Shown here: positions 1,118 to 64,000 of the stretch, piece by piece
Position numbering within the stretch: the stretch's first letter is position 1
How the letters are laid out: each line of letters begins with the position of its first letter
Origin: Escherichia phage WG01
Length of the DNA: 64,000 nt
Direction: 5' to 3' (one strand)
Sequence record: NC_031928.1
Notes under the pieces: model-generated
Seen by the model: only the letters and a program-made list of their open reading frames with translations
What the model was told of the DNA's origin: nothing
The model's database searches: none
Made by a program: the position numbers and the translations under genes

Positions 1118-3100
1118 ATGTCTTTATTATCACCGGGCATTGAGCTCAAAGAAACGTCCGTACAGAGTACTGTCGTTCGTAACGCAACGGGTCGTGCAGC
1201 GCTGGTTGGTAAATTCCAGTGGGGCCCTGCTTTCCAGGTAACTCAGATTACTAATGAAGTTGAACTGGTCGACTTATTTGGAGGTCCTAATAACGAAGTT
1301 GCTGATTACTTCATGTCGGGTATGAACTTCCTCCAGTATGGTAACGACCTTCGTACTGTTCGTGTTGTTAACCGTGAATTCGCTAAAAACGCGTCTCCGG
1401 TAGCGGGTAACGTCCAAACCACTATTACTACTGCAGGTTCTAACTATGCGGTAGGCGATAAAATTAATATCAAATATAACCAGACTGTTGTTGAATCTGA
1501 AGGTCGTGTAACTTCGGTCGATACAGACGGTAAAATTCTATCAGTGTTTATTCCTACCGGCAAGATTATTTCTTATGCTCGTTCTGTTAACCAGTATCCG
1601 AACCTAGGCCCTGCGTGGACTGCTGAAGTTACTTCTGCCTCTTCCGGTGTTTCTGGTACTATTACTGTCGGTAAAATTGTAACCGATTCCGGTATTCTGT
1701 TGACTGAAGCAGAGAACAGTGAAGAAGCTATTACTTCCCTGGAGTTCCAAGCATCTCTTAAACAGTTTGGTATGCCTGGTGTGGTCGCCCTTTATCCTGG
1801 TGAAATTGGTAGTACTCTGGAAGTTGAAATTGTTTCTAAAGCGGCTTATGATGCTGGTTCTACTAAAATGTTGGATATTTATCCAAACGGTGGTACTCGT
1901 GCTTCTGTAGCTAAAGCGGTATTCAACTACGGCCCGCAAACAGATGACCAATACGCAATTATTGTTCGTCGTGATGGCGCTATCGTAGAATCTGTCGTAC
2001 TTTCTACCAAAGAAGGTGAAAAAGACGTTTACGGTAATAACATTTATCTTGACGACTATTTCGCTAAAGGTACTTCTAACTATATTTTTGCTACCTCTTT
2101 GAACTGGCCTAAAGGCTTCAGTGGTATCATTAATCTTATGGGTGGTGTATCTGCTAACGATCAGGTTACTGCGAGTGATTTGATGCAGGGTTGGGATTTG
2201 TTTGCCGACCGTGAAGCACTCCATATTAACCTTTTGATTGCTGGTGCCGTTGCCGGTGAAGGTGATGAAGTTGCTTCTACCGTCCAGAAACACGTTGTTA
2301 GTATTGCTGATGAACGTCAGGATTGCTTGGCATTTATTTCTCCTCCTAAAGGACTGTTGGTTAACGTTCCATTGACTCGTGCAGTAGATAATCTTATCGA
2401 CTGGCGTACCGGTGCAGGTACTTTCGATACCAACAACATGAACATTAGCACCACTTATGCTGCTATTGATGGTAACTATAAATATCAGTATGACAAATAT
2501 AATGACGTAAACCGTTGGGTGCCTCTGGCCGCTGATATGGCTGGTTTGTGTGCACGTACTGATGATGTTTCTCAGCCTTGGATGTCTCCGGCAGGTTATA
2601 ACCGTGGCCAGATTCTTAACGTTCTGAAATTGGCAATTGAACCGCGCCAAGCTCAACGTGACCGCATGTACCAAGAAGCTATTAACCCAGTTGTTGGTTT
2701 TGCTGGTGGCGATGGTTTCGTATTGTTTGGTGATAAGACTGCAACCAAAGTTCCATCTCCGATGGACCACATTAACGTTCGCCGTCTGTTCAACATGCTT
2801 AAGAAAAATATCGGTGATGCCTCTAAATATAAACTGTTTGAATTGAACGACAACTTCACTCGTTCAAGCTTCCGTATGGAAGTTTCTCAGTACTTAGATG
2901 GTATTAAGGCACTTGGTGGGATTTATGAAGGACGTGTGGTTTGTGATACTACAGTGAACACCCCTGCGGTTATCGACCGTAATGAGTTTATTGCTAATAT
3001 CTACGTTAAACCGGCCCGTTCTATTAACTACATCACGTTGAACTTCGTTGCAACGAGCACTGGTGCTGATTTTGATGAATTGATTGGACCTTTAGTATAA
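1118..3100 (+). CDS. 18: tail sheath protein
   Basis: 660 aa, MSLLSPGIELKETSVQ... N-terminus and length as T4 gp18; SD AAGAGGA upstream; late promoter TATAAATA at 1081. Confidence 0.95.
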   Translation: MSLLSPGIELKETSVQSTVVRNATGRAALVGKFQWGPAFQVTQITNEVELVDLFGGPNNEVADYFMSGMNFLQYGNDLRTVRVVNREFAKNASPVAGNVQTTITTAGSNYAVGDKINIKYNQTVVESEGRVTSVDTDGKILSVFIPTGKIISYARSVNQYPNLGPAWTAEVTSASSGVSGTITVGKIVTDSGILLTEAENSEEAITSLEFQASLKQFGMPGVVALYPGEIGSTLEVEIVSKAAYDAGSTKMLDIYPNGGTRASVAKAVFNYGPQTDDQYAIIVRRDGAIVESVVLSTKEGEKDVYGNNIYLDDYFAKGTSNYIFATSLNWPKGFSGIINLMGGVSANDQVTASDLMQGWDLFADREALHINLLIAGAVAGEGDEVASTVQKHVVSIADERQDCLAFISPPKGLLVNVPLTRAVDNLIDWRTGAGTFDTNNMNISTTYAAIDGNYKYQYDKYNDVNRWVPLAADMAGLCARTDDVSQPWMSPAGYNRGQILNVLKLAIEPRQAQRDRMYQEAINPVVGFAGGDGFVLFGDKTATKVPSPMDHINVRRLFNMLKKNIGDASKYKLFELNDNFTRSSFRMEVSQYLDGIKALGGIYEGRVVCDTTVNTPAVIDRNEFIANIYVKPARSINYITLNFVATSTGADFDELIGPLV

Positions 3101-7584: not shown

Positions 7585-9144
7585 ATGAAAAAGAATGCAT
7601 TAGTTCAAAAATGGTCCGCTCTGCTGGAAAACGAAGCCCTTCCTGAAATCGTGGGTGCTTCTAAACAAGCTATCATCGCTAAAATTTTCGAAAACCAGGA
7701 ACAAGACATCCTGACTGCTCCGGAATATCGTGATGAAAAAATCTCTGAAGCATTTGGTTCTTTCCTGACCGAAGCTGAAATTGGTGGTGACCACGGTTAT
7801 GATGCTACCAATATCGCAGCTGGCCAGACTTCTGGTGCTGTAACTCAGATTGGGCCGGCAGTAATGGGTATGGTTCGTCGTGCTATTCCTCATCTGATTG
7901 CTTTTGATATTTGTGGTGTTCAGCCTCTGAATAACCCTACCGGCCAGGTATTTGCCCTTCGTGCAGTTTATGGTAAAGACCCTATCGCTGCTGGCGCTAA
8001 AGAAGCTTTCCATCCGATGTATTCTCCGGATGCTATGTTCTCTGGTCAGGGTGCTGCTGAATCTTTCGAAGCACTGGCTGCAAGCAAAGTTCTGGAAGTT
8101 GGTAAAATTTATTCTCACTTCTTCGAAGCTACCGGTGCTGCACACTTCCAGGCTGTTGAAGCCGTAACCGTTGATGCTGCTGCTACTGATGCCGCTAAAC
8201 TGGATGCTGCTGTTACCGCTTTGATTGAAGCTGGTAAGTTGGCTGAATTGGCTGAAGGTATGGCTACTTCTATCGCTGAACTTCAGGAAGGCTTTAACGG
8301 TTCTACCGATAACCCGTGGAACGAAATGGGCTTCCGCATCGACAAACAAGTTATCGAAGCTAAATCCCGTCAGCTGAAAGCAAGCTACTCTATCGAACTG
8401 GCACAGGACCTTCGTGCAGTACACGGTATGGATGCAGATGCTGAACTGTCCGGTATCCTTGCTACCGAAATTATGCTCGAAATCAACCGTGAAGTTATCG
8501 ATTGGATTAACTACTCTGCACAGGTTGGTAAATCTGGTATGACCAACACCGTTGGCGCTAAAGCTGGTGTGTTTGACTTCCAGGACCCGATTGATATCCG
8601 TGGTGCTCGTTGGGCCGGTGAGAGCTTTAAAGCCCTTCTGTTCCAGATTGATAAAGAAGCAGCCGAAATCGCTCGTCAGACCGGTCGTGGTGCTGGTAAC
8701 TTCATCATCGCTTCCCGTAACGTAGTTAACGTACTGGCTGCAGTTGATACTTCTGTAAGTTATGCAGCTCAAGGTCTGGGTCAAGGTTTCAACGTTGACA
8801 CAACCAAAGCAGTATTTGCCGGTGTTCTTGGTGGTAAATATCGCGTTTACATCGACCAGTATGCACGTTCCGATTACTTCACCATCGGTTATAAAGGCGC
8901 TAACGAAATGGACGCAGGTATCTACTACGCTCCGTACGTTGCACTGACCCCGCTGCGTGGTTCCGATCCGAAGAACTTCCAACCGGTAATGGGCTTCAAA
9001 ACTCGTTACGGTATCGGTATCAACCCGTTCGCTGACCCGTCTGCACAGGCTCCTACCAAACGTATTCAGAGCGGTATGCCTGACATCGTTAACAGCCTTG
9101 GTCTGAATGGTTATTTTCGTCGGGTTTATGTCAAAGGAATTTGA
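7585..9144 (+). CDS. 23: major capsid protein
   Basis: 519 aa; size and sequence character as T4 gp23; strong codon bias; followed by a UUCG-loop terminator. Confidence 0.95.
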   Translation: MKKNALVQKWSALLENEALPEIVGASKQAIIAKIFENQEQDILTAPEYRDEKISEAFGSFLTEAEIGGDHGYDATNIAAGQTSGAVTQIGPAVMGMVRRAIPHLIAFDICGVQPLNNPTGQVFALRAVYGKDPIAAGAKEAFHPMYSPDAMFSGQGAAESFEALAASKVLEVGKIYSHFFEATGAAHFQAVEAVTVDAAATDAAKLDAAVTALIEAGKLAELAEGMATSIAELQEGFNGSTDNPWNEMGFRIDKQVIEAKSRQLKASYSIELAQDLRAVHGMDADAELSGILATEIMLEINREVIDWINYSAQVGKSGMTNTVGAKAGVFDFQDPIDIRGARWAGESFKALLFQIDKEAAEIARQTGRGAGNFIIASRNVVNVLAAVDTSVSYAAQGLGQGFNVDTTKAVFAGVLGGKYRVYIDQYARSDYFTIGYKGANEMDAGIYYAPYVALTPLRGSDPKNFQPVMGFKTRYGIGINPFADPSAQAPTKRIQSGMPDIVNSLGLNGYFRRVYVKGI

Positions 9145-9175
9145 TAACATAAGTTATTAATTCTTAAAATTATTT

Positions 9176-54857: not shown

Positions 54858-57800
54858 ATGGCCGATATTTTAAAACCTGCCTTCCGTGCTACATCCGGAC
54901 TCGATGCTGCAGGCGAGAAAGTTATCAATGTTGCCAAAGCCGATTACAATGTATTAGACGACGGCGTCAACGTTGAATTCTTTATAGATGAGAACACCAT
55001 CCAGGCGTACGACGAGACGCGCGGATATAAGAAAGGGTTTGCCGTAATCCATGACCAACGTATCTGGGTTGCTCAACGTGATATCGATGCTCCAGCAGGA
55101 ACCTTTGTACCGGGTTATTGGACTGCAACTCGTACTGACCCTAAATGGATTACCGTAGCATCTCCTACACGCCAGCTGGCTTCCGGTGAATATATTGCTG
55201 TGGATTCTGCTGCTAGCTTTACTACATTTACCCTGCCTCCGAACCCTACTGATGGTGATACCATCGTAATCAAGGATATTGGTGGCCGTGTAGGTTATAA
55301 TGAAATTAAGCTCCAGTCTAGTTCTGCTCCAGGTGGTGGTAATCAGAAAATTGTCCGTTTCGGTAACCAGTTCACTGAGACCTTAATTACGAAGCCTTTT
55401 TCCTATAATATGATTATCTTTGCCAACCGTTTATGGCATTTCTGGGAAGCAGCTAATGAAGAACGTGGTATTCGTGTAGAACCGAACACCGCCCAGTTCC
55501 AATCACAAGCGGGTGATAACGTTTTACGTCGTTATACTTCAGGTGCAGTAATTAAGTTTACTCTTCCTAAGTATGCGAACCAAGGTGATATTATTAAAAC
55601 CGTTGATATCGATGGTTTAGGAAGTAAATTCCACTTAATCGTTGAAACATTTGATGCGTCATCTTCATTAGGTAAGCCCGGCCAGCATAGCATGGAATTC
55701 CGTACTTCAGGTGATGGATTCTTTGTTTATAACTCTACCGAAAAATTATGGTATGTTTGGGACGGCGACCGACAAACTCGTTTACGTGTAATTCGTGACG
55801 ATGTTGAACTCTTGGCTAACGAAAGTGTTATTGTTTTTGGTCCTAATAACACGACACCCCAGACAATTAATATCACATTACCTACCGGTGTGGCCCAGGG
55901 TGATGTCGTTAAGATTGCTCTGAACTATCTCCGTAAAGCTCAGACGGTAAATATTAAGGCTGCCGTAGGAGATAAGATTGCTTCATCCGTCCAGTTGCTT
56001 CAATTCCCTAAACGTTCAGAATATCCGCCAGAAACCGAATGGGTATTGAATGACGTACTGACCTTTAATGGCAATATAAGTTATACTCCGGTTATTGAAC
56101 TGAGTTATATCGAAGACACCACTACAGGTGGCAAATATTGGGTTGTTGCCCAGAACGTTCCTACTATAGAACGTGTGGATTCTAAAGATGATTTAACTCG
56201 TGCTCGTTTAGGTGTTATTGCCCTTGCGTCCCAGACTCAAGCAAACGTCGACCATGAAAATAATCCTGAAAAAGAACTGGCAATTACTCCGCAGACTTTA
56301 GCTAATCGTGTAGCGACTGAATCTCGTCGTGGTATTGCTCGTATTGCTACTACTGCTCAAGTGAACCAGGACACAACCTTCGCATTCCAGGACGATTTGA
56401 TTATTTCTCCTAAGAAATTAAACGAACGTACTGCAACCGAAACACGTCGTGGTGTTGCTGAAATTGCTACGCAAGTTGAAACCAATGCTGGTACAGATGA
56501 TACTACAATCATCACTCCTAAGAAGCTACAAGCACGCCAGGGTTCGGAAAGTCTTTCAGGTATTGTAACATATACCTCTACTGTAGGAACCACTCCTGCG
56601 ACTGCTAGGGACACCGTAGGTACTAACGTTTATAATAAGAACGTAGGCAATTTGGTTATTTCTCCTAAAGCTCTTGACCAGTATAAAGCTACCCAAGTTC
56701 AACAGGGTACGGTATATCTTTCTAACCAATCTGAAGTTAACGCAGGTCAAACTGCAAGTGGATTTGCCAACAGTGCTGTTTCTCCTGAAACATTACATGC
56801 TCGTGTGGCTCTTGATACTCGTACAGGGTTAATTGAAATTGCTACGCAACAGGAAACTGATACTGGAACAGATTATACTCGTGCAGTAACGCCTAAAACG
56901 TTAAATGATAGGAAAGCTACGGAAGGATTGACTGGTATTGCTAGAATTGCAACACAGGTAGAATTTGATGCTGGTACGTTAGATAATGTTATTTCAACTC
57001 CGTTGAAAGTTAAAACAAGATTTAATGATACTGCTAGAACTTCTGTCTCAGCAGCCAGTGGTTTGGTTGAATCAGGAACCTTATGGAACCATTATACACT
57101 AGATATTAGAGAAGCAAATGAGACTCAACGTGGTACTGCTCGCCTGGCAACCCAGACCGAAGTCAACGTTGGTACCGATGATAAAACTATCATCACTCCT
57201 TTGAAATTGCATTCTAAAAAATCTACTGAAAGTTCTGAAGGTATTATTCGTGTTGCAACGAATACCGAAACAACTGCAGGAACTTCTAAAGTTCTGGCTG
57301 TAAGCCCTTCTGGTTTAAAATATGTAGTACAAACCGAAACCACTTGGGAAGCTACTGCACTTCGTCGTGGATTTGTTAAACTAACCGAAGGTGCTTTAAC
57401 CCATTCAGGAAATAAAGTTACTGGTTCTGGTGTTAAATTTAACTCAGGTACAGGCCTTTACGAGAACGATGATACTGTTCTGAATGCAGCGAACTATCCT
57501 AAAACAGGTTATGCTGTTTCATCTTACGAGATGAATAAAACTTTACAGAACTTTTTACCTATAAATGCTACGGCTGTGAACTCCGAGAAATTGGATGGCC
57601 TAGATTCACTTCAGTTCATTCGTAGAGACGTTGACCAAACGGTTAATGGTTCTTTAACGTTGACAAAACAATTGAACCTGGCAGCTCCTCTAGTGTCTTC
57701 TAGTACTGCTAATATTACCGGCAATACTATTTTAGGTTCTCTGGAAGTAACCGGAAATTCTACTTTTAAAAATGATGTATCTGTTAGCTCAGGTAAATCT

Positions 57801-58907
57801 ATTAAATTTGTAGGCCCTCAGTCAGGCGCTGGTACTTGGAACTCTCAAGGTGATACTTTAGCTCCGATTTTTGCCGAGATAAATTCGACCCCAGATGCCA
57901 AGTTCCATCCTATTGTTAAACAACGTTTAGGGCAAGGTACGTTCTCTTTAGGCACTGTAAATGATGGAACTCGTGATTTTAAAATACATTATCTTCCATC
58001 GCCGGGTTCTTTAGAATCTTTCTACTGGACCTTTAATACGACTGGTGACTTTGCTGTTAATAGTGGTTCCATTAGTATTTCTAAGAATGCTAATATCACA
58101 GGTATAACCACTTCTAACGGTGTTTCTACAACTACATTAAATGCTTCTGCTCTGTCTTCATTACAAAACGTAACTACTTCAGGTACTATCGTTTCCACCG
58201 GACAGGTATCGGCAAATAATGGTTTGGTTGCTCAAAAATACGTCCGCTCTGTTGGTGTTAAACCTACATTAGCATCGCAGGCCCCTACTGCAGAAACAGT
58301 TGGCTTCTGGTCTGTCGATATCAATGATTCGGCTACATTTAACCTATTCCCAGGTTATTGGACGATGAAAACTAAACGTCAGGTTAATATTGATACGGTC
58401 CAAACTAAACCTGCCGGTGTTTCTGATGAGATATGGAATGCTTCTGGTTGGTTGACAGAAACGGGTGCATTTAGTTCTCCGGCTATTCGTTATCGTAACG
58501 AAGACGGTAGTTTTGGTGACGAAGTTCTCAGTACGACGGGTCAGAAATTACGTGGTACTTGGTTTGATTATTCTGTTCGTGATAAGGAAGTTAAATATCC
58601 TGGTACGTTAACTCAGTTTGGTAATACATTGGATTCATGTTATCAGGATTGGGTGTGCTATCCTACAGGACCGAATGGTGGTACTATTCGTTATACACGT
58701 ACCTGGCAGAAAAATAAAAACGCATGGACTACGTTCTCTATGGTCTATACGGCAGATAACCCTCCTTCTGCGGAAGAGGTTGGTGCATTGCCTGCTGATA
58801 ACGCTACAATGGGTAACATTACAATCCTTGATTGGTTACGTATTGGTAACGTTCGTATTATTCCTGACCCGGTCACTAAATCCGTTAAGTTTGAGTGGAT
58901 TGAATAA
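54858..58907 (+). CDS. 34: long tail fibre proximal subunit
   Basis: 1349 aa; late promoter TATAAATA at 54818; internal repeats typical of gp34. Confidence 0.9.
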   Translation: MADILKPAFRATSGLDAAGEKVINVAKADYNVLDDGVNVEFFIDENTIQAYDETRGYKKGFAVIHDQRIWVAQRDIDAPAGTFVPGYWTATRTDPKWITVASPTRQLASGEYIAVDSAASFTTFTLPPNPTDGDTIVIKDIGGRVGYNEIKLQSSSAPGGGNQKIVRFGNQFTETLITKPFSYNMIIFANRLWHFWEAANEERGIRVEPNTAQFQSQAGDNVLRRYTSGAVIKFTLPKYANQGDIIKTVDIDGLGSKFHLIVETFDASSSLGKPGQHSMEFRTSGDGFFVYNSTEKLWYVWDGDRQTRLRVIRDDVELLANESVIVFGPNNTTPQTINITLPTGVAQGDVVKIALNYLRKAQTVNIKAAVGDKIASSVQLLQFPKRSEYPPETEWVLNDVLTFNGNISYTPVIELSYIEDTTTGGKYWVVAQNVPTIERVDSKDDLTRARLGVIALASQTQANVDHENNPEKELAITPQTLANRVATESRRGIARIATTAQVNQDTTFAFQDDLIISPKKLNERTATETRRGVAEIATQVETNAGTDDTTIITPKKLQARQGSESLSGIVTYTSTVGTTPATARDTVGTNVYNKNVGNLVISPKALDQYKATQVQQGTVYLSNQSEVNAGQTASGFANSAVSPETLHARVALDTRTGLIEIATQQETDTGTDYTRAVTPKTLNDRKATEGLTGIARIATQVEFDAGTLDNVISTPLKVKTRFNDTARTSVSAASGLVESGTLWNHYTLDIREANETQRGTARLATQTEVNVGTDDKTIITPLKLHSKKSTESSEGIIRVATNTETTAGTSKVLAVSPSGLKYVVQTETTWEATALRRGFVKLTEGALTHSGNKVTGSGVKFNSGTGLYENDDTVLNAANYPKTGYAVSSYEMNKTLQNFLPINATAVNSEKLDGLDSLQFIRRDVDQTVNGSLTLTKQLNLAAPLVSSSTANITGNTILGSLEVTGNSTFKNDVSVSSGKSIKFVGPQSGAGTWNSQGDTLAPIFAEINSTPDAKFHPIVKQRLGQGTFSLGTVNDGTRDFKIHYLPSPGSLESFYWTFNTTGDFAVNSGSISISKNANITGITTSNGVSTTTLNASALSSLQNVTTSGTIVSTGQVSANNGLVAQKYVRSVGVKPTLASQAPTAETVGFWSVDINDSATFNLFPGYWTMKTKRQVNIDTVQTKPAGVSDEIWNASGWLTETGAFSSPAIRYRNEDGSFGDEVLSTTGQKLRGTWFDYSVRDKEVKYPGTLTQFGNTLDSCYQDWVCYPTGPNGGTIRYTRTWQKNKNAWTTFSMVYTADNPPSAEEVGALPADNATMGNITILDWLRIGNVRIIPDPVTKSVKFEWIE
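56310..57390 (+). repeat. 34: in-frame tandem peptide repeats inside gene 34
   Basis: Recurrent unit of about 30 aa (R-G-x-A-x-[IL]-AT-Q-x-E-x-x-x-G-T-D-x-x-x-[IA]-[IV]-T-P-x-x-L), at least 5 copies. Confidence 0.6.
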
Positions 58908-58915
58908 GAGGTATT

Positions 58916-60037
58916 ATGGAAAGATTTATGGCAGAATTTGGACAAGGATATGTCCAGGTTCCTACATTATCTGAAAACAATGCTGTAAGGTATAAACTTA
59001 GTATAGCGGGTAGTTGTACTAAGTCTACCACAAAAGCATATGTTAAATTTCAAGATGGGAACTTCGGTTCCCAGAATTTTCAAAATGGATTAAACCTTAT
59101 AGAAATTGATGTTAGTGCTGAACCTAAAATAGTGGCTAACAAAACTTATAGTTTTACAAAAGATTTTGATGTTATTTCTGAAGCTTTTATAACGTATATA
59201 AATTCTATACCGGCCAATAGAATAGTTTGTTTAGTATCTTCTGGTAGATTAAATGCTTCACAAAAACTTATCGATTGGTTCCGTGCAGCAGGAAGTACCG
59301 CATTCCCGTCTAAATGGTTGATAGACCGGTTTGAGCCGTCTTATTCTGCATTTTATGTTTCAGGAAGGAATGCTATAGTAATGGAACATGTGCTTTATAA
59401 TGATGGGGTATTGGTCGAAGATGTTTCTACTCCATTAGAAGTGGTATTTGATGATATCAGTGATGTCGGTGGTACAGGATATCCTGTCAGAATTGTTGAA
59501 GACGAAAGCACTTATCTAAGCAATGATGGAGATGAAATTAAGCGATTTCCTACCGAATCTCCTACCACCCCATTAACAGATTATAACATGAAGCCAGGTG
59601 AATTCTTTTACCTTAAGTTTCAATTAATGCGCGACCAAGCTTTAAAAGACGTAGGGACTTCTCAGATGTCTGTTAGATTTTTTAATGCCTCAGGTGCTTT
59701 AACTGGGACAGTTAATATGGACGTTCCTTCCAACGTTCCTGCTGGCGCATGGATGACATTTGAACGGGTAGTAATGGTTCCTGAAGGTACTACAGACTTT
59801 ACTCTTTATGCCAGAAAAACAGCTTCGGCTGGCCAAGGCGGAGTTCGAAATGTTATGTTCGGTGAGATATCTGAATCAGAACCTCAGCCAAAACCTGCTG
59901 AATTTGGTGTTAACGGTATTCGTATGAACTTTGGTACGGAAACTAAAAATATGGGTACTACCATAGCCCAGCTATATGATAAAACAGGCACTAAACCTGG
60001 TCAGGTTTGGGTCGCTGAATTTAGAGAAAAATATTAA
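58916..60037 (+). CDS. 35: long tail fibre hinge connector
   Basis: 373 aa (T4 gp35 372 aa); terminator hairpin follows. Confidence 0.85.
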   Translation: MERFMAEFGQGYVQVPTLSENNAVRYKLSIAGSCTKSTTKAYVKFQDGNFGSQNFQNGLNLIEIDVSAEPKIVANKTYSFTKDFDVISEAFITYINSIPANRIVCLVSSGRLNASQKLIDWFRAAGSTAFPSKWLIDRFEPSYSAFYVSGRNAIVMEHVLYNDGVLVEDVSTPLEVVFDDISDVGGTGYPVRIVEDESTYLSNDGDEIKRFPTESPTTPLTDYNMKPGEFFYLKFQLMRDQALKDVGTSQMSVRFFNASGALTGTVNMDVPSNVPAGAWMTFERVVMVPEGTTDFTLYARKTASAGQGGVRNVMFGEISESEPQPKPAEFGVNGIRMNFGTETKNMGTTIAQLYDKTGTKPGQVWVAEFREKY

Positions 60038-60112: not shown

Positions 60113-60760
60113 ATGGCAGATTTAAAATTAGGTTCTACAGCAGGAGGTTCAGTATTATGGCACCAAGGTAATTTTCCCTTAACGCCTGTATCAAATGACC
60201 TTCTTTACAAAACATATAAAGTTTATACCGAATATAATAAACCGCAAGCCACTGATAACGACTTTGTTTCAAAAGCAAATGGTGGTAATTATAAGAATAA
60301 CGTGTATTTTGAAAAAGGGCTGACCTTTAATGATACTAATGGATACGGTATTAAATTAGGAACAAGAACTGGTGGAGCACCGTTCACGGCTTCTTTCCGT
60401 ATTAAAGGCGCTTTTGGATATGAAACGGAAGATGGTACTCCGTTCATGATATTCAACCCAAGTACAGTAGTAGGTGCTAAACGCCTCACAGTAATGGGTG
60501 ATTCATTATTCAGACAAGTATATGACGAATCAGGTCGTGTATTCAGTCCAGGCAACACCCCTACTAAAGCTCAAGTAGGATTATCGTTAGTAGATAACGC
60601 AAAACAGGTCCAAATAAATAATACTAACATGCAAACAATGACCGGGGTACTTGCTGCTCCTAACTTTATTTCGCTGAATCCGGCCTCTGACGCAGGACAC
60701 GTTCCTCGTTTTGACCAGATTGTTATTAAAGATTCTATTCAAGATTTTGGTTATTATTAA
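60113..60760 (+). CDS. 36: long tail fibre distal subunit, small
   Basis: 215 aa, position and size as T4 gp36. Confidence 0.85.
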   Translation: MADLKLGSTAGGSVLWHQGNFPLTPVSNDLLYKTYKVYTEYNKPQATDNDFVSKANGGNYKNNVYFEKGLTFNDTNGYGIKLGTRTGGAPFTASFRIKGAFGYETEDGTPFMIFNPSTVVGAKRLTVMGDSLFRQVYDESGRVFSPGNTPTKAQVGLSLVDNAKQVQINNTNMQTMTGVLAAPNFISLNPASDAGHVPRFDQIVIKDSIQDFGYY

Positions 60761-60768
60761 GAGGCATT

Positions 60769-63700
60769 ATGGCTACTTTAAAGCAAATCCAATTTAAAAG
60801 AAGTAAAGTAGCCGGTGTACGTCCGGCACCGGCCCAGTTGGCTGAAGGCGAACTGGCTATTAACTTAAAGGACCGTTTACTTTTTACTAAAGACGATACT
60901 GGAGCGATTATCGACCTTGGCTTTGCTAAGGGTGGAAATATCGATGGTAATGTTATTCATAAAGGCAATTACAACCAAACCGGCGATTATACACTTAATG
61001 GTGTATTTACTCAAATTGGTGATTTCAATCTCAATGGTATTGCTCGTGTAACTCGTGACATTATTGCCGCTGGCCAGATAATGACCGAAGGCGGCGAGCT
61101 TATTTCTAAGAGCGCCTCAACTTCTCACCTTCGTTTCTTTGATGGTGATGATCGTGAACGTGGTATTATCTTTTCTCCAAATAATGCGGGTCTTACCAAT
61201 CAAGTAGTTAATATTCGCGTCCAAGATTACGCTGCAGGAAGTGAAAGCACCTACGCGTTTTCAGGCAATGGTGTATTTTCTTCACCAGAAGTTTTTGGGT
61301 GGAAATCTGTATCAACTCCGGTAATTTATACCAATAAAGTTATTACTAATAAAAAGGTTAAAGGTGATTATGACATCTATTCGTTGGCTGACAACACTCC
61401 ATTTGAAGAAGGCGAAACGGCTATTAACCACCTCCGTGTTATGCGAAATGCTGTAGGAGCAGGTATTTTCCACGAAGTTAATGTTAATGACGGAATAACC
61501 TGGTATTCCGGAGATGGCTTAGACACTTATCTTTGGTCGTTTAACTGGGCCGGTGGATTGAAAGCCGGTCATTCTATTTCTGTAGGTCTTCCAGGTGGTT
61601 CTAAAGGATATTCTGAATTAGGAACTGCATCAATTGCTCTTGGTGATAATGACACCGGGTTAAAATGGCACCAAGATGGTTATTTCTTTAGTGTAAACAA
61701 CGGCACAAGAACTTTCCTGAGCGGCCCTGCAGAAACCACCAGTCTTAGAAAAATGGTTATGGGTTATTCTGTAAACGGTACCGATTTAACCACTCCTCCG
61801 TCGGAAAACTATGCTTTGGCGACGGTTGTCACTTATCATGATAATAACGCGTATGGCGACGGTCAAACTCTTTTAGGTTATTATCAAGGTGGCAATTATC
61901 ACCACTATTTCCGTGGTAAAGGTACTACAAACGTTAACACCGCTGGTGGTTTGTTAGTTACTCCGGGTAATATTGATGTTGTTGGCGGTTCGGTTAATAT
62001 TGATGGCCGCAACAATGCTTCTACACTAATGTTCAGAGGAAATACTACAGGAAGTAGTTCAGTTGATAATATGACTATCGCCGTTTGGGGTAATACCTTT
62101 ACTAATGTTGATGGTGACCGTAAAAACGTAATGGAAATATCTGATGCCACTAGTTGGATGTGGTATATTCAGCGCAAAACCGATGACAAAGTTGAAGCCC
62201 ATTTAAACGGTGCCTTACGTGTAAATGGAAGCATCGACGTCGGCAGAGAAGTTAACGTCTCCGGCACTATTGCTGGTAATGCGGTCAATGCTCTTAGAAT
62301 TTGGAACGACGACTACGGTGCCATTTTCCGCCGTTCGGAAGGAAGTCTTCATATTATTCCTACCGCCTTTGGCGAAGGTAAAACTGGTGATATCGGACCA
62401 CTTCGTCCATTTAGTTTGGCATTAGATACTGGTAAGGTTGTTATTCCTGACCTGGATTTGAGTCATACAACTTTTGCTGAAAATGGTTTTATTAAATTTG
62501 GCGGTCATGGTGCAGGTGCAGGTGGTTATGATATTCAATATGCACAAGCAGCTCCTATTTTCCAAGAAATTGATGATGACGCAGTAAGTAAATATTATCC
62601 TATTGTTAAGCAGAAATTCTTACAAGGAAAAGCTGTTTGGTCTTTAGGTACTGAAATTAATTCCGGGACTTTTGTTTTGCATCATTACAAAGAAGACGGG
62701 ACCCAAGGTCATACATCAAGATTTAATGCTGATGGTACAGTTAATTTCCCGGATAACGTACAGGTCGGTGGTGGTGAAGCTACTATTGCTAGAAATGGTA
62801 ATATTTTCTCTGATATTTGGAACGGATTTAATGGTGCAGGTAATATAACTAACATTCGCGATGCCATTGCTACTCGTGTTTCTAAAGAAGGTGACACGAT
62901 GACAGGCCGCTTAACTCTTAAAACCAACTCAGATGCCGTGGTTATTGATTATCCAGCAGATGAAGCAGGTTATGTTAAGGGTAAAAAAGGTGGTGTTGAT
63001 AACTGGTATGTAGGTAATGGTGGTGCTGATAATGGTTTAGCCTTCTGGAGCTTCCAATCCCAAGGCGGTATTAATATTAACCCGAATGGTGAGGTTATTC
63101 TATCTCCACAGGGCACTAGTATATTCAGTATAAACCGCGACCGCATCTATATGAACGGTGCCCACTGGGTTGCGCGTAAATCTGGTGCGTGGGGCGACCA
63201 ATGGGGTTTAGAAGCACCTTATTTCCTTGAGTTTGGTAGCGTGGGTGAAGACAGTTATTATCCCATTATTAAAGGCCGATCTGTAATTAGTGGTCAGGGT
63301 TATACTACTTCTGTTGAATTAGGCATGCGTCGTACTCCACAACAATGGGGACAAGCTATAATTCGTGTTGGCAACGCTGAACGTGGCGACGGTCCCGTAG
63401 GTATTTTCGAATTCCACTCTAGTGGTAGATTTTACTCCCCGTCTTCAGTCCAGACCCCTTCAATTTCTGTCAATACTGATAATGGATTGGGCGCTTCTAG
63501 TATTGCTATTGGTGATAACGACACAGGTTTAGTCCATGGTGGTGACGGCCGAATTAATATGTATGCCAATAGTATGCATATTGCAAGCTGGGGAGCCGGT
63601 TACCATATCCATGAAGGTCTTTGGGATACCACTGGTGCCTTGTGGACTGAAACAGGAAGAGCTATTATTTCTTTTGGTCATTTAGTCCAACAAAACGATA

Positions 63701-64000
63701 GCTATTCAACATTTGTTCGTGACGTTTATGTTCGTTCTGATATTCGTGTTAAAAAAGACCTTGTTAAATTTGAAAATGCTTCACAGACACTTTCAAAAAT
63801 TAACGGTTACACTTATATGCAGAAACGTGGCCTGGATGAAGAAGGTAATCAGAAATGGGAACCTAATGCCGGTTTAATTGCTCAAGAAGTTCAAGCTATT
63901 TTACCTGAATTGGTTGAAGGCGACCCTGACGGTGAAGCTTTACTTCGTTTAAACTATAACGGTGTAATTGGTTTAAATACAGCTGCAATCAATGAGCACA
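60769..64000 (+). CDS. 37: long tail fibre distal subunit, large (3' end beyond window)
   Basis: Absent from ORF track because no stop is reached; ATG 60769, frame hand-checked open to 64000; N-terminus MATLKQIQFKRSK... matches recalled T4 gp37. Confidence 0.85.
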   Translation, partial: MATLKQIQFKRSKVAGVRPAPAQLAEGELAINLKDRLLFTKDDTGAIIDLGFAKGGNIDGNVIHKGNYNQTGDYTLNGVFTQIGDFNLNGIARVTRDIIAAGQIMTEGGELISKSASTSHLRFFDGDDRERGIIFSPNNAGLTNQVVNIRVQDYAAGSESTYAFSGNGVFSSPEVFGWKSVSTPVIYTNKVITNKKVKGDYDIYSLADNTPFEEGETAINHLRVMRNAVGAGIFHEVNVNDGITWYSGDGLDTYLWSFNWAGGLKAGHSISVGLPGGSKGYSELGTASIALGDNDTGLKWHQDGYFFSVNNGTRTFLSGPAETTSLRKMVMGYSVNGTDLTTPPSENYALATVVTYHDNNAYGDGQTLLGYYQGGNYHHYFRGKGTTNVNTAGGLLVTPGNIDVVGGSVNIDGRNNASTLMFRGNTTGSSSVDNMTIAVWGNTFTNVDGDRKNVMEISDATSWMWYIQRKTDDKVEAHLNGALRVNGSIDVGREVNVSGTIAGNAVNALRIWNDDYGAIFRRSEGSLHIIPTAFGEGKTGDIGPLRPFSLALDTGKVVIPDLDLSHTTFAENGFIKFGGHGAGAGGYDIQYAQAAPIFQEIDDDAVSKYYPIVKQKFLQGKAVWSLGTEINSGTFVLHHYKEDGTQGHTSRFNADGTVNFPDNVQVGGGEATIARNGNIFSDIWNGFNGAGNITNIRDAIATRVSKEGDTMTGRLTLKTNSDAVVIDYPADEAGYVKGKKGGVDNWYVGNGGADNGLAFWSFQSQGGININPNGEVILSPQGTSIFSINRDRIYMNGAHWVARKSGAWGDQWGLEAPYFLEFGSVGEDSYYPIIKGRSVISGQGYTTSVELGMRRTPQQWGQAIIRVGNAERGDGPVGIFEFHSSGRFYSPSSVQTPSISVNTDNGLGASSIAIGDNDTGLVHGGDGRINMYANSMHIASWGAGYHIHEGLWDTTGALWTETGRAIISFGHLVQQNDSYSTFVRDVYVRSDIRVKKDLVKFENASQTLSKINGYTYMQKRGLDEEGNQKWEPNAGLIAQEVQAILPELVEGDPDGEALLRLNYNGVIGLNTAAINEH

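Follow-up and report, generated by a model that had tools for sequence, protein, structure and literature searches.

The window analysed here, a 64,000-nucleotide stretch of DNA from Escherichia phage WG01 (NC_031928.1), ends within gene 37, the source being a T-even coliphage of JS98-like type in the genus Dhakavirus. PHROG and Pfam matches give the gene order gp34-35-36-37, all on the + strand. Gene 34 (54858..58907) encodes the proximal long-tail-fibre subunit of 1349 aa (PHROG 972, 1728 bits; Pfam Gp34_2nd, 110 bits), and is followed by gene 35 (58916..60037), which encodes the 373-aa proximal hinge connector (PHROG 1154, E = 5.7e-158) and has the same position as in JS10 and T4. Gene 36 (60113..60760) encodes the 215-aa distal hinge connector (PHROG 1425, E = 2.2e-57); an identical gp36 protein is found on PSD9 and on two metagenomic contigs, each with a gp37 of the S74 type and then a gp38 adhesin downstream.

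Gene 37, for the distal long-tail-fibre subunit, occupies 60769..64000 with codons 1-1077 of 1100 (PHROG 1699, 1258 bits). Translation of the window gives 1077 stop-free codons from the ATG at 60769, for which the chance expectation at the local base composition is ~3e-31, and both the gp36 stop (TAA, 60758-60760) and a Shine-Dalgarno sequence (AGAGG, 60760-64) lie ahead of this start. A previous reading of the sequence alone (hereafter, the sequence-only reading) had reported this open frame as running to the window end and missing from the list of open reading frames, and in this it was correct; the gene is unlisted because its frame overruns the window, and the practical lesson is that open reading frame tracks lose genes that a window edge cuts. 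The encoded protein is identical to residues 1-1077 of WG01 gp37 (P0001, 1100 aa; 100% identity, 100% coverage), from which the 23 residues beyond the window, TAEIAELKSEIEELKALIKSLLK, can be read as a terminal helix. All three peptides that had been quoted as diagnostic, SDIRVKKDL, GYTYMQKRG and AGLIAQEVQAILPELV, lie within residues 990-1046.

Architecture of the distal fibre subunit

Residues ~1-700 (60769..62868, + strand) form an N-terminal and shaft region in common with T4 gp37; BLASTP aligns the two proteins over ~800 residues at 34% identity (E = 3e-99), with the alignment ending near residue 700. This region includes a Gp34_trimer-like domain (Pfam PF21446, residues 447-549) and the gp36-binding N-terminus, and the T4-like N-terminus proposed by the sequence-only reading is evident in residues 1-60, which are nearly identical. 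Binned identity against Dhakavirus relatives defines a mosaic distal shaft and tip at residues ~651-950 (62719..63618, + strand), the most variable stretch among Dhakaviruses that are otherwise ~98% identical. In 50-residue bins against PSD9, KIT01 and PSD2002 the identity here drops to 48-80%, compared with 96-100% in the gp37 N-terminus and chaperone domain, and gene 37 is only 80-86% identical to its counterparts in PSD9 and QL01, against 98% for the upstream DNA.

Residues 904-989 (63478..63735, + strand), which form the tip at the distal end of mature gp37, are of the S16 type. From the protein sequence alone, residues 904-1077 align with the S16 gp37 tip (PDB 6F45, chain A; E = 4.5e-37), and a family profile matches the same entry with E = 1.7e-53 in an alignment that reaches the last residue. 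The structure of the S16 beta-helical tip is described in PMC6851490, and by analogy the end of the corresponding tip in WG01 gp37 is the predicted docking platform for gp38.

The extreme C-terminus of the 1100-aa protein, residues 990-1100, constitutes an intramolecular chaperone domain, of which residues 990-1077 are encoded in the window (63736..64000, + strand). The sequence-only reading had proposed a self-cleaving chaperone module of the Peptidase_S74 type and had named a profile search as the means of checking it; that search was positive, with PF13884 matching residues 990-1049 at 45.1 bits (E = 1.3e-11; gathering score 22 bits) over model positions 1-57 of 58, and with the same result for the full-length WG01 protein. 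Together with the S16 tip and chaperone alignment, this supports the proposal at the domain level. T4 gp37 gave no S74 match in a Pfam search with a reporting limit of E <= 0.01. The family profile also matches the auto-processing domain of MYRF (7dc3, E = 2.5e-5), which we take to be an autoprocessing S74 relative, and the heptad-like end of WG01 gp37 aligns with the terminal helices of both S16 and MYRF. Among structures, our sequence and profile searches reached S16 and MYRF only, and not the entries for endosialidase (3GW6) and T5 pb1 (4UW8). An AlphaFold2 monomer of the tip and chaperone, built from a 13-sequence alignment, was judged unusable (mean pLDDT 44.5); in this poor model a helix spans model residues 162-205 and only the last three 10-residue blocks have a pLDDT of 63-85.

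The predicted autocleavage site

In the S74 family, including endoNF, T5 pb1 and MYRF, the catalytic dyad consists of the serine at the cleavage site and a lysine five residues downstream. Alignment with the S16 site, DLNVS^SDRRIKK, predicts autocleavage of WG01 gp37 at R989^S990 (63733..63753, + strand), with Ser990 (63736-63738), which corresponds to position 1 of the Pfam S74 model, and Lys995 (63751-63753) as the putative catalytic residues. The window motif, R989^S990-DIRV-K995, aligns with SDRRIK in S16 and with (A)DLRAK in MYRF, and takes the form R^SDIR[V/C]K in all 120 homologues compared. In S16, the final 113 residues of gp37 are an intramolecular chaperone that cleaves itself at S^SDRRIKK (PMC7917993), and autoproteolytic release of the chaperone has been reported for this homologous protein (PMC7917993, PMC7289586).

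One feature of the site counts against a straightforward S16-like cleavage: the P1 residue is arginine in the window gp37 and serine in S16. This could be taken to mean that the S74 domain has degenerated and stays on the mature fibre uncleaved, with gp38 attaching elsewhere or serving only as an assembly factor, and the latter would also accord with several records that label gp38 an 'assembly catalyst'. We regard this as very unlikely. The serine and the lysine at +5 are kept in 120/120 homologues, the domain is 96-100% identical in close relatives even where it stands beside a mosaic tip, and it shares 56% identity with its S16 counterpart, for which cleavage is reported (PMC7917993). The label itself is a legacy of T4 naming; the T4 record carries its own note that gp38 of the T2 subfamily is unrelated to T4 gp38. 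The name 'gp38' is shared by the T4 chaperone and the T2/S16 adhesin, which are unrelated proteins, and legacy annotations are therefore misleading.

The gp38 adhesin and gp57A

Gene 38 lies beyond the window, and its product is tied to the window by WG01 protein identity and its adjacency by eight related loci. WG01 gp38 (P0249) has 265 aa and begins MAVGGPWVGSSAV; it matches the Pfam families GP38 (PF05268, 212 bits) and Gp38_N (PF21721, 73 bits), and its entire length can be aligned with both the S16 adhesin (6f45_D, E = 2.5e-47) and PP01 gp38 (9v85, E = 1.8e-58). [quoted passage not shown] In each of the eight related loci an S74 gp37 gene is followed, after a gap of ~30 nt, by a GP38-family gene of 257-264 aa and then by the holin gene t.

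These observations bear on the proposition that a gp37 with an S74 domain would be a self-sufficient, adhesin-less fibre like T5 pb1 or the endosialidase tailspikes, requiring neither gp38 nor gp57A. Its premises have some substance, in that the S74 domain is genuine, no T4-type gp38 chaperone is seen in relatives, and the S74-type domains of T5 and K1F do act without a separate adhesin (PMC7289586). Nevertheless, the presence of a GP38-family adhesin in WG01 largely refutes it; in addition, the gp37 tip shares homology with the tip on which gp38 docks in S16, the adhesin gene is immediately downstream in 8/8 loci, and gp57A has been kept; we consider it extremely unlikely. The view that such a fibre functions without gp38 is not supported, since WG01 has a 265-aa adhesin whose gene directly follows gene 37 in every one of the related loci. 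The narrower claim of the sequence-only reading, gp38-independent folding, survives in part. In place of a T4-like 183-aa gp38, the relatives and WG01 have GP38 adhesins of 257-265 aa, and because the relatives have no such chaperone gene, independence from a T4-type gp38 is effectively true; it is the GP38-family adhesin in WG01 that speaks against the claim in its broader sense. T4 gp38 itself has no Pfam match. Of the pairing that the sequence-only reading had set against its own proposal, a T4-type C-terminus with a gp38 chaperone or adhesin downstream, the adhesin exists but the T4-type C-terminus does not.

The position of gp57A is different. Independence of this factor cannot be deduced for gp37 because WG01 keeps gp57A (P0146; Pfam GP57, 98.5 bits), and the accessible literature contains no statement on whether gp37 of the S16/T2 type needs it. 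Recombinant S16 fibres have reportedly been made with co-expression of gp57A. In WG01 it probably assists gp34 and gp12, and possibly gp37 also. That in T-even fibres of the adhesin type the chaperone domain has taken over from both T4 folding helpers, such that gp37 trimerises without gp57A or a gp38 chaperone and gp57A is retained for gp34 and gp12 only, is an idea we think unlikely to be right.

The likeness to T4 extends to the ~700 N-terminal gp37 residues (34% identity), the operon position and the presence of gp57A in the genome, but T4 has a Collar domain and a needle tip, and its gp38, a 183-aa chaperone, is unrelated and does not form part of the virion. Pfam searches found Collar and Phage_fiber domains in T4 gp37 and in neither the window protein nor full-length WG01 gp37, and since homology to T4 also ends near residue 700, the non-T4 tip architecture anticipated by the sequence-only reading is upheld. 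Almost no credence can be given to a T4-type gp37 with a needle C-terminus beyond the window and a T4-type gp38 chaperone downstream, for although T4 gp37 and the window protein are homologous over their N-terminal ~700 residues, that homology then ceases, Collar and Phage_fiber domains are lacking, and the identical full-length protein stops 23 residues past the window; T4-type identity was rejected on this domain content and on where the WG01 protein ends. The gp37 fibre therefore groups with those of T2, T6 and S16 and not with that of T4.

Fibre assembly and relatives

We consider it very probable that WG01 gp37 belongs to a T2/S16-type fibre in which the chaperone domain cleaves itself off and a separate gp38 adhesin caps the tip. 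By homology, trimerisation of three gp37 chains would begin at the C-terminus, with the 111-residue chaperone (990-1100) acting as its nucleus. Once the trimer had folded, the Ser990/Lys995 dyad would cut between R989 and S990, as the conserved site and the autocleavage reported for S16 suggest, releasing a fragment of 12.3 kDa from the 118.7-kDa chain and leaving a mature gp37 of 106 kDa with the C-terminal sequence ...FVRDVYVR. Cleavage would then uncover hydrophobic pockets at the tip, and, following the S16 structure, one copy of gp38 would dock there through its N-terminal three-helix domain with the three tryptophans; in S16, removal of the chaperone domain exposes the docking surface for gp38 (PMC7917993). 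The outer-membrane receptor would be contacted by the glycine-rich C-terminal domain of gp38 and not by gp37.

The closest structural precedent is the S16 (gp37)3-gp38 tip complex (PDB 6F45; PMC7917993 and PMC6851490, both citing Dunne et al. 2018). The two systems have in common a homologous gp37 tip and chaperone domain, the position of the cleavage motif, a GP38-family adhesin with three N-terminal tryptophans, and the gene order 34-35-36-37-38-t. They differ in the length of the chaperone domain (113 aa in S16, 111 aa in WG01), in a 12-residue insertion in the WG01 tip, in the hypervariable loops of gp38, which are unlike, and in host, Salmonella for S16 and E. coli for WG01. Fibres of the T2/T6/PP01 type, in which the gp38 adhesin is part of the virion, are also close; PP01 and RB27 gp37 are 76-77% identical to that of WG01 and have the same S74 domain, and WG01 gp38 matches PP01 gp38 (9v85) and belongs to the same family as T6 gp38, but these phages are of the genus Tequatrovirus, not Dhakavirus, and the distal shaft is mosaic. 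According to Drexler, Riede and Henning (1986), T2 gp37 is reportedly processed at its C-terminus. With the K1F endosialidase and T5 pb1 the resemblance comprises the Pfam family, the C-terminal position, the Ser/Lys site and the terminal helix, and such chaperone domains are common to the S16, T5 and K1F fibres and spikes (PMC7289586). There, however, the mature trimer binds or degrades the receptor, whereas in WG01 cleavage would, by analogy with S16, uncover a docking site for the adhesin.

The combination of an S74 gp37 with a gp38 adhesin is the majority architecture among T-even phages (the T2/T6/S16 type) and is already known structurally from S16; S16-like fibres are found in most T-even phages (PMC6851490). 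As a discovery, therefore, an ordinary distal long-tail-fibre gene in a well-known arrangement carries little weight, and the receptor-binding proteins of WG01 have, as cited in a review, already been used for host-range engineering (Chen et al., in PMC13517834). For predicting host range, the parts to inspect are gp38 and the mosaic gp37 residues ~650-950, and not the chaperone domain.

Among the Dhakaviruses, JS98, Bp7, QL01, PSD9 and PSD2002 have 92-98% upstream nucleotide identity with WG01, the same architecture and a downstream gp38 adhesin, and residues ~650-950 of gp37 are recombinant. JS98 and Bp7 carry a second allele of the chaperone domain, 105-106 aa long and only ~50% identical to that of WG01, and the alleles (111 aa versus 105-106 aa) may recombine as cassettes, even inside the domain. 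The final 82 nt of the window have one exact match among viral contigs, on a contig that carries a different, 1107-aa gp37 allele.

Gene 37 and its C-terminal chaperone domain

The sequence-only reading had held that the gene 37 frame stays open to the end of the window yet is unlisted in the ORF track, and this is borne out by translation: 60769-64000 (+) contains 1077 stop-free codons, a run with a chance of about 3e-31 at the local base composition, and all of the C-proximal peptides quoted in that reading are found in the translated protein. The gene is missing because the track omits ORFs that leave the source sequence. Its ATG (60769) lies 9 nt past the TAA that ends gene 36 (60758-60760) and is preceded at 4 nt by a Shine-Dalgarno sequence (AGAGG); the spacing between the two genes is identical in JS10, PSD2002 and UPEC01. 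The product matches PHROGs family phrog_1699, 'long tail fiber protein distal subunit' (1258 bits), and the three ORFs upstream encode gp34, gp35 and gp36 according to PHROGs and Pfam. A protein search retrieved P0001, the 'long tail fiber protein distal subunit' of Escherichia phage WG01 (1100 aa), which is 100% identical over all 1077 residues; the window therefore lacks only the final 23 residues of gp37, TAEIAELKSEIEELKALIKSLLK.

The intramolecular chaperone proposed for the C-terminus was recovered by an HMM search, in which Pfam Peptidase_S74 ('Chaperone of endosialidase') matched residues 990-1049 at 45.1 bits (gathering score 22), with model position 1 falling on Ser990. PF13884 is carried by 120/120 of the matches listed, these being the best 120 of 1173 proteins found at E<=1e-10. 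A profile of 13 sequences of the family also matches 7dc3 (E=2.5e-5), a domain of myelin regulatory factor that we take to be an autoprocessing relative of S74. The same profile aligns with 6F45 chain A ('Long tail fiber distal subunit') at E=1.7e-53, reaching the final residue, while the last 174 residues of gp37 in the window align with that chain at E=4.5e-37. This structure is the (gp37)3-gp38 tip complex of Salmonella phage S16 (PMC6851490), and within the window the chaperone domain shares 56% identity with its S16 counterpart. AlphaFold2 gave only a poor monomer model of the tip and chaperone domain (mean pLDDT 44.5).

The motif DVYVR^SDIRVKK aligns with the S16 cleavage site given in PMC7917993, where Dunne et al. 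are cited; gp37 is therefore predicted to be cut at R989|S990 (nt 63733-63738), five residues upstream of Lys995. The core of this motif, R^SDIR[V/C]K, is kept in 120/120 top homologues. Cleavage there would yield a mature gp37 of 106.4 kDa and a chaperone fragment of 12.3 kDa, as computed. That the tip is unlike that of T4 also holds, since a Pfam search detected no Peptidase_S74 in T4 gp37 at E<=0.01, T4 has Collar and Phage_fiber (needle) domains in its place, and BLASTP homology between the two proteins ends near residue 700. The architecture is itself already known: the S16 structure and chaperone domain are published, S16-like fibres are apparently present in most T-even phages (PMC6851490), and S16 has been grouped with T5 and K1F among autocleaving intramolecular chaperones (PMC7289586).

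The gp38 adhesin and fibre assembly

The further suggestion of 'gp38/gp57-independent folding', with a self-sufficient tip, does not hold for gp38: the 'gp38' of this lineage is an adhesin unrelated to the T4 chaperone of that name, as a T4 RefSeq note also states, and WG01 has it. We examined eight related loci (PSD2002, JS10, UPEC01, PSD9, the ENA metagenome contig L011 and the Logan read-assembly contigs L005, L006 and L012), in which an S74-bearing gp37 is followed after about 30 nt by a 257-264-aa GP38-family gene and then by the holin gene t; L006, which ends inside gene 37, does not reach the downstream genes. The downstream proteins match Pfam GP38 ('Phage tail fibre adhesin Gp38') and Gp38_N. 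WG01 gp38 itself, annotated 'Receptor-recognizing protein gp38' (P0249; 265 aa; GP38 212 bits, Gp38_N 73 bits), was retrieved from a protein cluster, and its whole length can be aligned both to the adhesin of S16 (6f45_D, E=2.5e-47) and to PP01 gp38 (9v85, E=1.8e-58). Its 39-residue attachment domain contains W7, W20 and W35, which fit the three-tryptophan docking mode of S16 (PMC6851490, PMC7917993).

WG01 also encodes gp57A (P0146; Pfam GP57, 98.5 bits), and gene 57A of JS98 sits at a T4-like position. This protein is also required for gp34 and gp12 (PMC7289586); we found no statement in the accessible literature on whether adhesin-type gp37 requires it.

By analogy with homologous fibres, the chaperone domain would nucleate gp37 trimerisation from the C-terminus, and a putative Ser990/Lys995 dyad would then perform the cleavage. 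Release of the domain would uncover docking pockets for gp38, a single monomer of which would cap the trimer and bind the outer-membrane receptor through its glycine-rich loops.

Several records, including those for L002 (7344-8117) and L003 (7335-8108), label GP38-family adhesins as 'distal long tail fiber assembly catalyst', and another has 'tail protein and peptidase'; these labels are legacy transfers of T4 naming that misstate adhesin function. P0241, a protein of 303 aa that is labelled E. coli and encoded on a contig of 25.7 kb, combines Peptidase_S74, Gp38_N and GP38, apparently a fusion of the chaperone-domain end of gp37 to gp38. This probably reflects an error of annotation or a frameshift artefact in a contaminating phage contig; a read-through fusion is possible.

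Variation among related phages

Over the 20.8 kb upstream of gene 37, identity is 98.2% with Shigella phage PSD9, 97.9% with QL01 (an Escherichia phage) and 92% with JS98, which assigns the window to a T-even phage of the JS98 type (Straboviridae, Tevenvirinae, Dhakavirus); against the phage collection, gene 37 DNA reaches only 80-86% identity. In 50-residue bins, the N-terminus and chaperone domain of gp37 keep 96-100% identity with PSD2002 and PSD9, while residues ~650-950 show only 48-80%, which is the mosaicism typical of receptor-binding proteins. A review (PMC13517834) attributes to Chen et al. 2017 the swapping of receptor-binding-protein host-range regions between WG01 and QL01. The chaperone domain has two alleles that are only ~50% identical, one of 111 aa (WG01, PP01, RB27 and others) and one of 105-106 aa (JS98 and Bp7; P0090/P0107). 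At least one protein (P0099) joins a 111-type body to a JS98-type terminal helix, implying recombination within the domain.

Other features of the window

No tRNA genes, and no Rfam families at the gathering threshold, were found in the 64-kb window, which fits a window that spans the late structural and replication region and not the tRNA cluster; in JS98 that cluster sits near genes 57A/57B. A 516-aa antisense ORF (7600-9150, -) runs codon-for-codon opposite the whole of the major capsid gene 23 (7585-9144, +). It has no Pfam match, while the + strand gives a 409-bit match to Pfam Gp23, and it is almost certainly not a gene but a consequence of the extreme codon bias of gene 23, whose 520 codons include one TTA, no CTA and no TCA, with CTG supplying 18/31 leucines; the fibre genes use TTA most often for leucine. 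A 388-aa ORF (1604-2770, -) within the tail sheath gene 18 (1118-3100, +), also without a Pfam match, is probably a similar artefact, since the 661 codons of gp18 are likewise depleted (TTA 5, CTA 2, TCA 3). Lastly, residues 57-130 of gp35 (58916-60037, +) give a borderline match to Pfam ILEI (interleukin-like EMT inducer/PANDER-like; 28.4 bits, cut-off 27) that recurs, rated 'weak', in the gp35 of every related contig and may reflect a common beta-sandwich fold in this hinge connector.
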